From the NCBI RefSeq assembly GCF_003334355.1, contig NZ_QOWP01000001.1: a stretch of DNA of 64,000 bases. One strand, written 5' to 3'. This stretch comes from Escherichia coli. Its GTDB lineage: Bacteria; Pseudomonadota; Gammaproteobacteria; Enterobacterales; Enterobacteriaceae. Both the position numbers and the translations under genes were made by a program. A model generated the notes under the pieces. The model saw nothing but the letters and a program-made list of their open reading frames with translations. It ran no database searches and was not told where the DNA came from. Below are positions 2,175-60,082 of the stretch, piece by piece (the stretch's first letter is position 1; the number at the start of each line of letters is the position of its first letter).

Positions 2175-5100
2175 ATGTTGTACGATAAATCCCTTGAGAG
2201 GGATAACTGTGGTTTCGGCCTGATCGCCCACATAGAAGGCGAACCTAGCCACAAGGTAGTGCGTACTGCAATACACGCACTGGCCCGCATGCAGCACCGT
2301 GGCGCGATTCTCGCCGATGGTAAAACCGGTGACGGTTGCGGCTTGCTGTTACAAAAACCGGATCGCTTTTTTCGCATCGTTGCGCAGGAGCGCGGCTGGC
2401 GTTTAGCGAAAAACTACGCCGTCGGGATGCTATTCCTGAATAAAGATCCTGAACTCGCCGCTGCCGCACGCCGCATCGTTGAAGAAGAGCTGCAACGCGA
2501 AACCTTGTCGATTGTGGGCTGGCGTGATGTCCCCACTAACGAAGGCGTGCTGGGTGAAATCGCCCTCTCCTCTCTGCCACGCATTGAGCAAATTTTTGTG
2601 AACGCCCCGGCAGGCTGGCGTCCACGCGATATGGAGCGCCGTCTGTTTATCGCCCGCCGCCGCATTGAAAAGCGTCTCGAAGCCGACAAAGACTTCTACG
2701 TCTGTAGCCTGTCGAATCTGGTGAACATCTATAAAGGTCTGTGTATGCCGGCGGATCTGCCGCGCTTTTATCTGGATCTTGCGGACCTGCGTCTGGAATC
2801 GGCCATTTGCCTGTTCCACCAGCGCTTCTCCACTAACACCGTACCGCGCTGGCCGCTGGCGCAACCGTTCCGCTATCTGGCGCATAACGGTGAAATCAAC
2901 ACCATCACCGGTAACCGCCAATGGGCGCGTGCGCGTACCTATAAATTCCAGACGCCGCTTATCCCTGATCTGCACGACGCCGCACCGTTCGTCAACGAAA
3001 CCGGCTCTGACTCCAGTTCCATGGATAACATGCTGGAACTGCTGCTGGCAGGCGGGATGGATATCATCCGCGCCATGCGTCTATTAGTACCACCCGCCTG
3101 GCAGAACAACCCGGATATGGACCCGGAACTGCGTGCCTTCTTTGACTTTAACTCCATGCATATGGAGCCGTGGGATGGCCCGGCGGGCATCGTGATGTCC
3201 GACGGTCGTTTTGCCGCCTGTAACCTCGACCGTAACGGTCTGCGTCCGGCGCGCTACGTCATCACCAAAGATAAGCTCATCACCTGCGCCTCTGAAGTCG
3301 GTATCTGGGATTACCAGCCTGACGAAGTGGTCGAAAAAGGCCGCGTCGGGCCAGGCGAACTGATGGTTATCGACACCCGCAGTGGGCGTATTCTGCACTC
3401 GGCAGAAACCGATGACGATCTGAAAAGCCGCCATCCATATAAAGAGTGGATGGAGAAAAACGTCCGCCGACTGGTACCGTTTGAAGATCTGCCCGATGAA
3501 GAAGTGGGTAGCCGCGAACTGGACGACGACACGCTTGCCAGCTACCAGAAACAGTTTAACTACAGCGCGGAAGAGCTGGACTCCGTAATTCGCGTACTGG
3601 GCGAAAACGGTCAGGAAGCGGTCGGTTCGATGGGCGATGATACCCCATTCGCCGTGCTCTCCAGTCAGCCGCGCATTATTTACGACTACTTCCGCCAGCA
3701 GTTTGCCCAGGTGACTAACCCGCCAATCGACCCGCTGCGTGAAGCGCATGTTATGTCGCTCGCCACCAGTATCGGTCGTGAAATGAACGTCTTTTGCGAA
3801 GCAGAGGGCCAGGCGCACCGTTTAAGCTTTAAATCGCCGATTCTGCTCTACTCCGATTTCAAACAGCTCACGACGATGAAAGAGGAGCACTACCGCGCAG
3901 ATACGCTGGATATCACCTTTGACGTCACTAAAACCACGCTCGAAGCGACAGTCAAAGAGCTGTGCGACAAAGCCGAAAAAATGGTACGTAGCGGCACCGT
4001 GCTGCTGGTGCTCTCCGACCGGAATATCGCTAAAGATCGCCTGCCGGTTCCAGCCCCGATGGCGGTTGGCGCGATCCAGACCCGTCTGGTCGATCAAAGC
4101 CTGCGTTGCGATGCCAACATCATCGTCGAAACCGCCAGCGCCCGCGATCCGCACCACTTCGCCGTGTTGCTGGGCTTCGGCGCGACGGCTATTTATCCAT
4201 ACCTTGCCTATGAAACGCTGGGCCGCCTGGTAGACACCCATGCGATTGCCAAAGATTATCGTACCGTGATGCTCAACTACCGTAACGGCATCAACAAAGG
4301 CTTGTACAAAATCATGTCCAAAATGGGCATCTCCACCATCGCCTCTTACCGCTGCTCGAAACTGTTTGAAGCGGTCGGTCTACACGATGATGTAGTGGGC
4401 CTGTGCTTCCAGGGGGCGGTCAGCCGCATTGGTGGGGCAAGCTTTGAAGACTTCCAGCAGGATCTGCTGAATCTGTCGAAACGTGCCTGGCTGGCGCGTA
4501 AGCCCATCAGCCAGGGCGGCCTGCTGAAATACGTCCACGGCGGCGAATACCACGCCTACAACCCGGACGTGGTGCGCACGCTGCAACAAGCGGTACAAAG
4601 CGGCGAGTACAGCGACTATCAGGAATACGCGAAGCTGGTTAATGAGCGTCCGGCAACCACGCTGCGCGATCTGCTGGCAATTACGCCGGGTGAAAACGCG
4701 GTCAACATTGCTGATGTTGAACCGGCAAGCGAACTGTTTAAACGCTTTGATACCGCCGCGATGTCTATCGGCGCGTTAAGCCCGGAAGCCCACGAGGCGC
4801 TGGCGGAAGCGATGAACAGCATCGGCGGTAATTCGAACTCCGGTGAAGGCGGCGAAGACCCGGCGCGCTACGGCACCAACAAAGTGTCGCGCATCAAGCA
4901 GGTGGCTTCCGGTCGCTTTGGGGTTACTCCGGCGTATCTGGTCAATGCCGACGTCATTCAGATTAAAGTCGCCCAGGGCGCGAAGCCAGGCGAAGGCGGT
5001 CAGTTGCCGGGTGATAAAGTCACGCCTTACATCGCCAAACTGCGCTATTCGGTGCCCGGAGTGACGCTGATCTCCCCGCCGCCGCACCACGATATCTACT

Positions 5101-6635: not shown

Positions 6636-8066
<1,431 letters not shown>

Positions 8067-8249: not shown

Positions 8250-8729
8250 ATGGAATCGCTCTCAGAGAGAACCTCAACAGGCTACCAGCAAATCCATGAC
8301 GGTATTATTCACCTGGTCGATAGCGCCCGGACGGAAACGGTACGTAGCGTTAACGCGCTGATGACCGCGACATACTGGGAAATTGGCCGACGAATTGTCG
8401 AATTTGAACAAGGTGGCGAGGCCAGGGCTGCGTATGGTGCGCAGCTAATCAAGCGACAATCAAAGGATTTAAGTCTAAGGTATAAGCGTGGGTTCTCTGC
8501 AAAAAACTTACGCCAAATGAGGCTTTTTTACCTCTTTTTTCAACATGTTGAAATTCGCCAGACAGTGTCTGGCGAATTAACACCATTGGGAATTCCGCAG
8601 ACACCATCTGCAGAATTCCCATCGGCAAAGATTTGGCAGACGCTGTCTGCCAAATTGAGAGGCTGTTTGATATTTCCACAGCTTTTGTATTGCATCTCCT
8701 ATTTTCGGTTTGTATATTCATGCAAATAA
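8250..8729 (+). pseudogene. yhcG: Truncated YhcG-like (DUF1016 family) gene; N-terminal domain only
   Basis: The first ~100 aa (…YWEIGRRIVEFEQGG…NLRQMRLFYLFF…IRQTVSGEL) resemble the DUF1016/YhcG N-terminal region as I recall it. After that the reading frame runs through a palindrome array and AT-rich sequence with no nuclease-like C-terminal domain. The intact 159-aa ORF could still be translated. Confidence 0.55.
8552..8653. repeat. Three imperfect palindromes with a CAGAC..GTCTG core, centres about 39 bp apart
   Basis: aattcgccagacagtgtctggcgaatt (8552-8578), gggaattccgcagacaccatctgcagaattccc (8588-8620) and ttggcagacgctgtctgccaa (8633-8653), read directly from the sequence. Confidence 0.7.
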
Positions 8730-58152: not shown

Positions 58153-58404
58153 ATCTGAAACATAAAGGCGCTTTCGGGTGCCTTTATTATTTTCAGTGAA
58201 ACCCATAAAAATTAATAAGATATTCTTTTGCTCACTCTTTAAAAGCTTTCTATAGTTCCCGCTCCCTTCACTATTTTTACAATTCACATAATTTGTCATT
58301 ATTCATTCCGCAAGATTTATAACCTCCGGTGATAAAATGGCATTCAGCTCGTTAATAAGAGAGTTAACTTATTAAGCGTTAGCGTTTATTACTGAGGTAA
58401 CACC

Positions 58405-58626
58405 ATGAAAAGATTAATTCCTGTGGCATTGCTCACCGCATTGCTGGCGGGCTGTGCTCACGATTCGCCCTGCGTTCCGGTTTATGACGATCAGGGGCGT
58501 CTGGTTCACACCAATACCTGTATGAAAGGCACAACTCAGGATAACTGGGAAACGGCTGGGGCTATTGCTGGCGGAGCAGCAGCTGTTGCTGGCCTGACGA
58601 TGGGGATCATCGCTCTGTCGAAATAA
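58405..58626 (+). CDS. yhdV: Small lipoprotein YhdV
   Basis: 73-aa ORF with a lipobox (LLAGCAHD) and a Gly/Ala-rich C-terminus. Confidence 0.85.
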   Translation: MKRLIPVALLTALLAGCAHDSPCVPVYDDQGRLVHTNTCMKGTTQDNWETAGAIAGGAAAVAGLTMGIIALSK

Positions 58627-59056
58627 CTGAACAGGGCGCGGAGTTTCGCGCTCTGTTTAACGATACAGTATCTTTACATAAGATAAAATATTGCTATATT
58701 CTGCTGGCTAATTCTCTGCTGACTTAGCATGTTATATCGCGTTATTTCGCTGCTTTCGAAATAACGCATCAATTTAACTTTCGCACTTCCCACCAGAAAT
58801 ATACTCACGCTAACAATCATTATTCTGCTTAGTAAAACACGCGTAAATATTTTGCGCCAAAATGTGGCGCATGTTTCATTTTCGCACCATTGCGGGGCGC
58901 TGTTTTTATTATTTCCTGTCTACACTCAGCTTATTGCGACGCGAAATCGTGCGCAAAAGCTGGCACTACTTTTGCTTATAAGAGGATGGCCACAGACAGG
59001 TAAAAGACGTTTCCCAAACGTCCTATAACGATAATTTTCGCCTCACAGGAAGCATT

Positions 59057-60082
59057 ATGAAAAAGATGATGATAGCCACACTGGCTGCCGCCAGCGTGCT
59101 GCTTGCCGTTGCAAATCAGGCGCATGCTGGCGCGACGCTTGATGCCGTACAGAAAAAAGGTTTTGTGCAATGCGGGATCAGTGATGGATTACCTGGGTTC
59201 TCTTATGCCGATGCTGACGGTAAATTTTCAGGTATTGATGTTGATATTTGTCGTGGTGTTGCCGCTGCTGTATTTGGTGACGACACGAAAGTGAAATATA
59301 CCCCGCTCACTGCAAAAGAACGCTTCACCGCTTTACAGTCAGGGGAGGTGGATTTGCTCTCCCGTAATACGACCTGGACTTCATCTCGCGATGCCGGGAT
59401 GGGAATGGCATTTACTGGCGTCACTTATTACGACGGCATTGGCTTCCTGACGCACGATAAAGCGGGGCTAAAAAGCGCGAAAGAACTGGATGGCGCTACC
59501 GTCTGTATTCAGGCGGGTACTGATACCGAACTCAACGTCGCCGACTATTTCAAGGCAAACAATATGAAGTACACACCAGTGACTTTCGATCGCTCTGACG
59601 AATCAGCGAAGGCACTGGAATCTGGTCGCTGCGATACGCTGGCTTCGGATCAATCCCAACTGTATGCCCTGCGCATCAAATTAAGCAACCCGGCTGAATG
59701 GATTGTCTTACCGGAGGTTATCTCTAAAGAACCGCTTGGGCCGGTAGTTCGTCGTGGCGATGATGAATGGTTCTCGATTGTACGCTGGACGCTTTTCGCC
59801 ATGCTAAATGCTGAAGAGATGGGCATCAATTCCCAGAACGTCGATGAAAAAGCGGCTAATCCAGCAACGCCTGATATGGCACATCTGCTGGGTAAAGAAG
59901 GCGATTACGGCAAGGATCTGAAGTTGGATAATAAATGGGCCTATAACATCATCAAACAGGTGGGTAACTACTCGGAAATTTTTGAGCGTAACGTAGGTTC
60001 AGAAAGCCCGCTGAAAATTAAACGTGGGCAAAATAATCTCTGGAATAACGGCGGTATTCAGTACGCACCGCCCGTGCGTTAA
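59057..60082 (+). CDS. yhdW: Amino acid ABC transporter periplasmic binding protein YhdW
   Basis: 341-aa ORF with a signal peptide (MKKMMIATLAAASVLLAVANQAHA); family 3 solute-binding protein. Confidence 0.92.
   Translation: MKKMMIATLAAASVLLAVANQAHAGATLDAVQKKGFVQCGISDGLPGFSYADADGKFSGIDVDICRGVAAAVFGDDTKVKYTPLTAKERFTALQSGEVDLLSRNTTWTSSRDAGMGMAFTGVTYYDGIGFLTHDKAGLKSAKELDGATVCIQAGTDTELNVADYFKANNMKYTPVTFDRSDESAKALESGRCDTLASDQSQLYALRIKLSNPAEWIVLPEVISKEPLGPVVRRGDDEWFSIVRWTLFAMLNAEEMGINSQNVDEKAANPATPDMAHLLGKEGDYGKDLKLDNKWAYNIIKQVGNYSEIFERNVGSESPLKIKRGQNNLWNNGGIQYAPPVR

Follow-up and report, generated by a model that had tools for sequence, protein, structure and literature searches.

The yhdV-yhdW intergenic region

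The 430 bp between yhdV and the yhdWXYZ transporter operon of Escherichia coli carry two inverted repeats, a long perfect palindrome (dyad 1) and, nearer to yhdW, a shorter one (dyad 2), which raises the question of whether either of them takes part in control of the operon. The region occupies positions 58,627 to 59,056 of the stretch of 64,000 nucleotides analysed here, referred to below as the window. A sequence-only reading of the window had taken both dyads as operators for a dimeric regulator. The reading favored here, to which a probability of roughly 0.6 is attached, is that the region is the nitrogen-regulated (NtrC/sigma-54) control region of yhdWXYZ, and that dyad 1 has no demonstrable role in it.

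Open reading frames and annotation give the gene order acrF–yhdV–yhdWXYZ, with yhdX and yhdY as further flanking genes; yhdW is intact in the window and is a frameshifted pseudogene in K-12. The intergenic DNA is A+T-rich, as had been described, with a GC content of 0.34-0.46 compared to about 0.5-0.59 in the flanking genes. Used as a query, the 430 bp found matches of 95-100% identity in 5377 of 5426 complete E. coli genomes, where the segment is chromosomal, occurs once and overlaps no annotated feature. An IS1-mediated deletion was the sole rearrangement found in the sampled genomes. From 58790 onward as far as the start codon the window does not differ from K-12, all 10 differences lying upstream of 58790. 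In K-12 coordinates (U00096.3), dyad 1 corresponds to 3,418,724-3,418,752, blocks A and B (described below) to 3,418,838-3,418,884 and block C to 3,418,897-3,418,914. The features discussed below are collected in Table 1.

Table 1. Features of the yhdV-yhdW region, in window coordinates, and forms of dyad 1 in Escherichia lineages
Feature	Position	Strand	Description
yhdV	58405-58626		73-aa lipoprotein gene
yhdV terminator-type hairpin	58628-58659	+	ACAGGGCGCG..CGCGCTCTGT, directly 3' of the yhdV stop codon
Sigma-70-like promoter match (candidate)	58673-58700	+	TTTACA-16-TGcTATATT; 10/12 with TG in consensus scan
Tandem 10-bp direct repeat	58731-58750	+	GTTATATCGC followed by GTTATTTCGC; second copy is the left arm of dyad 1
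Dyad 1	58739-58767	.	11-bp perfect arms, 7-nt spacer; Escherichia-specific; center about -234
Block A (dyad 2)	58853-58871	.	Putative NtrC-type site, promoter-distal; 17-mer at 58853-58869; center about -126
Block B	58883-58899	.	Putative NtrC-type site CGCACCATTGCGGGGCG, 10/14; center about -96
Block C	58912-58929	.	TTTCCTGTCTACACTCAG, near-invariant; center about -66
Variable-length spacer	58934-58956	.	Bounded by conserved TTGCG ... CGCAA(A); length sets two helical-turn classes
Sigma-54 promoter of yhdW	58960-58976	+	CTGGCACTACTTTTGCT; GG at 58962-63, GC at 58974-75
5'UTR stem-loop	59006-59022	+	GACGTTT-CCC-AAACGTC
yhdW	59057-60082	+	Intact, 341 aa; periplasmic binding protein of the YhdWXYZ ABC transporter
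Dyad 1 form, E. coli			GCGTTATTTCG-ctgcttt-CGAAATAACGC
Dyad 1 form, L004			TTATTTCGAA-cc-TTCGAAATAA
Dyad 1 form, E. whittamii (L003)			7-bp stem only
Dyad 1 form, L005			Arm mismatched, spacer shorter

Both dyads are present as claimed. The arms of dyad 1, GCGTTATTTCG (58739-58749) and CGAAATAACGC (58757-58767), are 100% complementary across a 7-nt spacer, while dyad 2, seen at 58854-58870 as gcgccaaaatgtggcgc, extends to 7-bp arms (TGCGCCA/TGGCGCA, 58853-58859 and 58865-58871) around a 5-nt spacer. From Markov shuffles, the expected number of perfect stems of at least 11 bp, with loops no longer than 12 nt, is 0.21 per 64 kb. The window contains eight, of which five are A-run/T-run terminators, two belong to a palindrome cluster at 8552-8655, and the last is dyad 1, a stem of whose class arose in 0.3% of shuffles of the 430-bp region. 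At least one 7-bp dyad was present in 33% of these region shuffles, making dyad 2 unremarkable when taken alone; the region as a whole holds four perfect dyads of at least 7 bp compared to 0.41 expected, a number reached in only 0.15% of shuffles. Dyad 1 is rare by chance, and dyad 2 is not.

The sigma-54 promoter and nitrogen control of yhdWXYZ

The segment CTGGCACTACTTTTGCT is a perfect sigma-54 -24/-12 promoter on the same strand as yhdW. It is letter-for-letter the sigma-54 ChIP-seq site OS34, which was assigned to yhdW and lies 70 nt before the start codon (Bonocora 2015), and this match would place the yhdW transcription start near 58987. In vitro, a gSELEX peak between yhdV and yhdX has been reported for the reconstituted RpoN holoenzyme (Shimada 2021). 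The promoter is also conserved. Among 80 yhdW loci collected from Escherichia, Citrobacter, Enterobacter, Kosakonia, Lelliottia, Leclercia, Cedecea, Buttiauxella, Atlantibacter and other genera, it is present about 100 bp before the ATG in every one whose DNA reaches that far. This element, key to the region, is absent from the sequence-only reading.

NtrC ChIP-seq of nitrogen-starved cells lists a peak at yhdWXYZ (3416981-3417061), yhdWXZ belong to an NtrC iModulon (NtrC-3), nitrogen limitation induces them, and the literature describes the operon as NtrC-regulated. Both the sigma-54 promoter at 58960-58976 and the occupancy of the locus by NtrC in nitrogen-starved cells are established, and the place of yhdWXYZ in the NtrC/sigma-54 nitrogen-scavenging regulon was already known. 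An Lrp ChIP signal has been reported at yhdW as well.

A rigidly spaced conserved module upstream of the promoter

Across the 80 enterobacterial loci, the conserved islands upstream of yhdW are the promoter and three blocks designated A, B and C. Block A, with the consensus TTTTGCkCy...TGTGGCGCAGGTT, contains dyad 2; block B has the consensus TTyGCACCA....GGGCGCT; and block C, TTTCCTGTCTACACTC, is nearly invariant. The spacing from A to B is 20 bp in 79 of 79 loci and that from B to C is 37 bp in 73 of 74, while the distance from block C to the -24 element takes only the values 41-43 or 52-54 bp, two classes that are 11 bp, or one helical turn, apart. Since only distances a helical turn apart separate it from the sigma-54 promoter, the module is tied to that promoter, and its rigid geometry reads as the signature of a face-of-helix assembly at the DNA level rather than of an RNA structure. 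The perfect palindromy of dyad 2 is largely specific to E. coli. In most genera its left arm is GCTCY, so that the potential to form a hairpin is lost while the sequence block is kept. A possible long-range RNA pairing of CCTGTCT (58915-58921, block C) with AGACAGG (58994-59000, 5'UTR) was dismissed, since changes in the one or the other element are never compensated. Block C probably binds an architectural or co-regulatory protein.

The 5'UTR itself contains a stem-loop that shows covariation, with compensatory changes in five of its seven pairs and 83% of the cells in the helix paired. In an explicit-structure test, the structure tested was 84.7% paired as a whole, compared to 28-53% when the partners were slid. 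RNAalifold, given a MAFFT alignment of the 5'UTR, predicted almost no structure.

Blocks A and B as a putative NtrC enhancer

A known counterpart for comparison is the glnAp2 enhancer, whose two high-affinity NtrC sites are situated at -140 and -108, upstream of a sigma-54 promoter. The NtrC ChIP-seq peak at yhdWXYZ extends from +6 to +86 relative to the sigma-54 motif, and the glnA peak of the same study from +8 to +88 relative to the glnAp2 motif; this like offset, taken with the upstream position of the glnAp2 sites, suggests that the NtrC sites of yhdW also lie upstream of the promoter. The resolution of ChIP-seq is too coarse to assign dyad 2, and places NtrC at the level of the yhdWXYZ locus.

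The NtrC box used here is the 17-bp TGCACCAnnnTGGTGCA, taken from the NtrC gSELEX paper. The 17-mers at 58853 and 58883 each match it at 10 of 14 positions, with G2, C3, G15 and C16 kept; these are weak matches, and the window holds 36 of at least 10/14 where 29 are expected. The two sites are 30 bp apart, with centers at about -126 and -96, and so have the pairing and three-helical-turn spacing by which an enhancer can be recognised. Because the match to the box is weak, the assignment draws on position, pairing, conservation and the published locus-level binding of NtrC. Taken together, dyad 2 is most likely the distal NtrC enhancer site.

The arrangement resembles glnAp2 in its sigma-54 -24/-12 promoter, in two dyad sites about three helical turns apart (30 bp at yhdW, 32 bp at glnAp2) and roughly 100-140 bp upstream, in the offset of the NtrC ChIP-seq signal from the promoter motif, and in induction by nitrogen limitation. 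By contrast, the glnAp2 sites match the NtrC box at 13/14 and 12/14 positions rather than 10/14, and yhdW has in addition the invariant block C and a helical-turn-quantised spacer. When block A is read as a dyad, its half-sites (TGCGC/GCGCA) lie 2 bp further apart than those of the canonical box (TGCAC/GTGCA). In the proposed mechanism, phosphorylated NtrC dimers would bind the two weak-consensus sites, block A (dyad 2) and block B, on the same face of the DNA, and would oligomerise there; looping of the DNA would then bring NtrC into contact with the closed sigma-54 holoenzyme complex, leading to the open complex. The fixed A-B-C spacing and the quantised distance to the promoter would reflect this face-of-helix requirement.

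The earlier proposal of an operator for a dimeric regulator thus survives in part. It is upheld for dyad 2, which is conserved, lies at enhancer distance and belongs to a locus bound by NtrC, one of the candidates that had been named, although the site would be that of an activator (an enhancer) and the term operator does not apply; it is not upheld for dyad 1. No site-level footprint at yhdW was found in the literature consulted.

Possible other readers of blocks A and B

Several of the invariant bases in blocks A and B (TGTGGCGCAGG and GGGCGCT) are non-consensus for NtrC and hint at another or an additional reader. If blocks A and B were read mainly by such a regulator, NtrC would be secondary. 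The regulator might activate or repress an overlapping sigma-70/sigma-S promoter with TCTACACT in block C as its -10 element, or else be a CRP-like protein on AAATGTGGCGCATGTTTCA. Besides the non-consensus bases and the 10/14 matches, this reading would account for the equal spacing of A, B and C (about 30 bp), and a hypothetical transcription start about 7 nt past TACACT would, judging from the coordinates, put B near -42 and A near -72, which are classic activator positions. The main text of the paper that reports gSELEX with NtrC alone is in keeping with it: there, yhdV is listed only in the RpoN tables and yhdW is absent, from which it follows that purified NtrC may bind the yhdW locus poorly. 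Against it stand the NtrC ChIP-seq signal and NtrC-dependent expression documented for yhdWXYZ, and the helical-turn quantisation of the distance between the module and the sigma-54 promoter. Block C is not accompanied by a -35 element, the promoter scan is blank there, and no report of a corresponding transcription start or alternative factor was found in the literature consulted. A main reader other than NtrC is regarded as a long shot. CRP itself, compared with block A by consensus sequence alone, does not fit in both sequence and spacing.

Variation and origin of dyad 1

Dyad 1 stands apart from the conserved A-B-C module, on its upstream side. It is absent outside Escherichia among the 80 loci, where the operon and the promoter persist. 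In an even-step sample of 5244 E. coli genomes, about 72% carry the perfect form, about 20% the variant G58739A and about 5% C58740T; in 133 further genomes the region is present and the 28-nt exact match is absent. Among seven E. coli genomes chosen for their spread over the identity range, 3 of the 29 bp are polymorphic. This density of 0.10 per site equals that of the two neutral-looking flanks (0.125 and 0.07), and is fivefold that between block A and the ATG (0.02 per site in the same sample). All three of these SNPs fall in the arms and none is compensated. Most affect the outermost pairs only, and G58758A breaks an inner pair.

The Escherichia lineages share the right arm, TCGAAATAAC, and differ on the left side. 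Between TTATTTC and GAAATAA, E. coli has a spacer of 9 nt, E. whittamii and lineage L004 have one of 8 nt each, and lineage L005 has one of 6 nt together with an arm mismatch. The stem is extended outward in E. coli (GCG/CGC) and inward in L004 (GAA/TTC), and E. whittamii and L004 lack 11 bp at the site of the tandem repeat.

Correction of quasi-palindromes by template switching during replication is an established mutational mechanism. Dyad 1 resembles its products in that the differences between E. coli and L005 cluster in the left arm and loop, with the right arm and flanks conserved, and in that the left arm in E. coli matches the reverse complement of the conserved right arm exactly. Unlike the outcome of pure template switching, dyad 1 also owes something to the tandem 10-bp duplication. 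Dyad 1 is regarded as most likely a lineage-specific quasi-palindrome, and not an operator. The differences that cluster in one arm and the differently perfected sister versions fit a history in which a short A+T-rich arm (TTATTTC/GAAATAA) would have been duplicated and then perfected in a different way in each Escherichia lineage, by local duplication, by template-switch correction or by both. Given the improbability of the palindrome, the palindromic arms of three of four lineages and the mostly outermost position of the SNPs, selection may also act weakly in favor of a hairpin or a binding site, and four lineages are too few to separate selection for a hairpin from mutational bias.

Dyad 1 as a possible protein-binding site

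The strongest alternative for dyad 1, though still an unlikely one, is that it is the site of a dimeric DNA-binding protein that modulates yhdW or yhdV. Candidates would be an Escherichia regulator with NagC/Mlc-like half-sites and a longer spacer, or a nucleoid protein such as H-NS or Lrp nucleating on the A+T-rich arms. Such a site would explain the chance-improbable 11-bp perfect arms and their retention in most E. coli genomes, and would be consistent with the Lrp signal at yhdW. It would be harder to reconcile with the spacers of 6, 8, 8 and 9 nt found among the Escherichia lineages, which a dimer of fixed geometry would not tolerate, with the lack of conservation in other genera that have retained the operon and promoter, and with arm SNPs that are uncompensated and as dense as those of the flanks.

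The resemblance to NagC sites deserves separate mention. NagC and Mlc (ROK family) bind 23-bp quasi-palindromes with invariant TT/AA at +/-5,6. The arms GTTATTTC/GAAATAAC of dyad 1 are close to ideal as half-sites for NagC; by way of comparison, the glmU distal operator has CGAAATAAG at its end and ydeN1 has CTTATTTC at its start. Scored with a matrix built from 10 published operators, the arms reach 22.2 bits when the spacer is allowed 2 additional bp, the best value in the window and within the range of real operators (16.9-24.5 bits), and with a loop 2 bp shorter the score would be 22.7-24.5 bits. Taken in the true register, however, dyad 1 scores 6.6 bits: the TT/AA of dyad 1 stand at +/-6,7, the motif being TTATTT-N11-AAATAA where the operators have N9, and the other Escherichia lineages are off register too. 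Since TT/AA at +/-5,6 is invariant in NagC/Mlc operators, dyad 1 lacks their defining feature, and a NagC/Mlc operator was rejected on the 2-bp difference in spacing despite the fit of the half-sites. Dyad 1 does not appear in the published genome-wide list of NagC predictions, and the resemblance, to one regulator out of hundreds, is of low significance. An FhlA site, prompted by the ATTTCG motif, was likewise rejected, as the hyc-hyp motifs (TTTCGACA/GTCGAC) differ and dyad 1 has no TCGACA core; the hycA-hypA spacer carries repeats of the type TCATTTCGACATCATCGACA. Of ArcA, PhoP, CpxR, PmrA, IHF and Lrp, compared with dyad 1 or block C by consensus sequence alone, none fits in both sequence and spacing.

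Dyad 1 as a possible RNA element

The sequence-only reading had offered, as an alternative, that dyad 1 is a terminator-like structure for yhdV, while remarking on the lack of a T-run beside it. The remark is correct for either strand, and the alternative is not supported. yhdV has a conserved hairpin of its own 80 bp upstream of dyad 1, which folds as RNA at -21.5 kcal/mol (z -5.7); a GC-rich hairpin of different sequence (e.g. AAAAGCGCGG..CCGCGCTTTT) follows yhdV in nearly all of the 80 loci, with compensatory changes across genera. Dyad 1 is like an intrinsic terminator in being a stable hairpin downstream of yhdV, and unlike one in its A+T-rich stem (7 of 11 pairs A-T) and in the sequence that follows, ATCAATTTAAC, which contains no U-tract. 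The terminator scan does not flag it.

A broader version of this idea, considered quite improbable, is that dyad 1 acts as an RNA hairpin, either protecting the 3' end of yhdV read-through transcripts or forming a leader stem-loop of a long yhdW transcript that would start from the sigma-70-like match at 58673-58700. Dyad 1 does fold stably on both strands (-13.9 kcal/mol, z -4.3; other strand -14.7 kcal/mol, z -3.8), and its variable loop between arms that are complementary in three of four Escherichia lineages would fit a structure better than an operator of fixed spacing. Only three T follow the yhdV terminator, a weak U-tract for transcripts to pass, and the promoter match, a good extended -10 type in this strain, lies 40 bp upstream of dyad 1. 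This match is variable among strains, however, its -35 hexamer differing even in K-12, and its region is not conserved outside E. coli. Further evidence against an RNA role is the A+T-rich stem with no U-tract on either side, its absence from other genera, and the uncompensated SNPs, among them the one that breaks an inner pair. In the part of the E. coli Term-seq supplement (Adams 2021) that the analysis covered, yhdV has no listed 3' end. An Rfam scan of 58200-59300 at E<=10 returned only three chance-level hits (E 4.8-9.2, 15 bits compared to gathering thresholds of 45-55).

Two kinds of mobile or recombinogenic element were dismissed: a dispersed palindrome of the REP/BIME or MITE-like type, as the 31-mer of dyad 1 is single-copy (over 5244 E. 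coli genomes, the median number of places is one), and a tyrosine-recombinase core site, suggested by the 11-7-11 geometry, as neither an integrase nor an island lies close by and none of the sampled genomes has an insertion at the dyad.

Implications

The regulatory system of yhdWXYZ was known before, and the present analysis has little importance beyond annotation. The perfect palindrome that stands out in the region lies outside the conserved control module, and should not be annotated as an operator or a terminator without experimental evidence. A small experiment might be worthwhile, if anywhere, on block C and the conserved 5'UTR hairpin. Two further-reaching possibilities, together given only a slim chance, are that A-B-C is no plain NtrC enhancer and instead a rigid, 30-bp-periodic nucleoprotein assembly of three elements with a co-regulator, or that an Escherichia-specific regulator binds at dyad 1. 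If the first were true, a co-regulator of TGTGGCGCAGG, GGGCGCT and TCTACACT would gate the activation by NtrC of a general amino-acid transporter, and if the second were true, NagC-like half-sites would be in use at a spacing 2 bp longer than that of NagC. For the favored NtrC/sigma-54 reading, what is added to the known regulon is the placement of the likely enhancer sites at about -126 and -96, in a module phase-locked to the promoter across the Enterobacteriaceae.

Conservation upstream of the yhdW sigma-54 promoter

Among the elements upstream of the sigma-54 promoter of yhdW, block C is the most conserved across the 80 enterobacterial loci compared, and is separated from block B by a fixed 37 bp. 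A comparison of block C with regulator sites found no assignable match; its TCTACACT may be similar to a -10 of the sigma-S type and to a GTnTAnAC core. The distance from block C to the -24 element (measured from CTACACT to TGGCA in the related yhdW loci L003-L082) is confined to two ranges, 41-43 and 52-54 bp, which differ by one helical turn. The ends of the intervening spacer (58934-58959 in the window) are conserved as TTGCG...CGCAAA, and the spacer of some genera contains AATCAGGCGGTTG, a putative fit to the IHF consensus. The -24 element is itself flanked by a perfect 7-bp inverted repeat, GCAAAAG / CTTTTGC (58953-58975), with the -12 element forming its right arm, and with its left arm (CGCAAA) kept across genera without compensation.

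Just upstream of block A lies a GTAAA-N6-GTAAA direct repeat, GTAAAACACGCGTAAAT (58832-58848). Its N6 spacing differs from the N5 spacing of the CpxR consensus, and E. whittamii does not share the repeat. A study of the CpxR regulon lists yhdW among the genes down-regulated on Cpx activation.

A deletion of this region occurs in E. coli PSS-15 (related locus L086, 1737-2615), where an IS1A adjoins a truncated acrF. With the loss caused by this element, yhdV is gone, as is everything upstream of yhdW up to a point some 25 bp short of the sigma-54 promoter. The promoter is kept in this strain, without blocks A-C and without dyad 1.

Coordinates of sequence features in the window
Feature	Sequence	Position	Remarks
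Palindrome	AATTCGCCAGAC-agt-GTCTGGCGAATT	in 8552-8655	
Palindrome	GGGAATTCCGCAGA-cacca-TCTGCAGAATTCCC	in 8552-8655	
Palindrome	ATTTGGCAGAC-gct-GTCTGCCAAAT	in 8552-8655	
yhdV terminator-type hairpin		58628-58659	-21.5 kcal/mol; 3-T tail only
Sigma-70-like match, extended -10	TTTACA-16-TGcTATATT	58673-58700	strong match in this strain
Block C	TTTCCTGTCTACACTCAG	58912-58929	centre about -66; conservation in 80 enterobacterial loci
yhdW 5'UTR stem-loop	GACGTTT-CCC-AAACGTC	59006-59022	covariation

The yhdW leader and reading frame

Covariation supports the stem-loop in the yhdW 5'UTR, with compensatory changes in five of its seven pairs and 83% of helix cells paired; for the whole tested 5'UTR structure, pairing reaches 84.7%, against 28-53% in slid controls. 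An additional small hairpin, TGGCC-aaa-GCCA, is present in most other genera and has been lost from E. coli. The very start of the 5'UTR carries a near-invariant C/A-rich element, GGCCACAGACAGG (58988-59000), echoed by GCCtCACAGGAA at the ribosome-binding site (59040-59051), and this candidate element could serve as a small-RNA or standby-ribosome site.

The yhdW reading frame (59057-60082; 3431-4455 in the related locus L002) is intact in the window and frameshifted in K-12. When K-12 was evolved with nitrogen cross-feeding, deletions of 1 bp and 5 bp at nt 54-64 of yhdW reached high frequency, consistent with selection restoring the reading frame. A published 3'-end/Rho-related table includes a minus-strand site at 59133 (K-12 U00096.3 3419118), lying opposite the initial 80 nt of yhdW, which points to an antisense RNA that is transcribed in the direction of the promoter region.

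Palindromes downstream of a probable gltD

Three tandem palindromes lie at 8552-8655, downstream of a 472-aa ORF (6648-8066) that is probably gltD. A GCCAGAC/GTCTGGC core is common to two of the three, and in two the arms reach 11 bp or more. The group resembles either a repeated-palindrome element or a set of paired operators.

The yhdV-proximal region

The equivalent of the yhdV hairpin in other genera differs in sequence (AAAAGCGCGG..CCGCGCTTTT), and looks like a bidirectional terminator because A and T runs flank both its sides. Beyond the hairpin, the sigma-70-like match has TTTACA as its -35 in the window strain, whereas K-12 has CTCCAT. If active, this putative promoter would direct transcription through dyad 1 towards yhdW.
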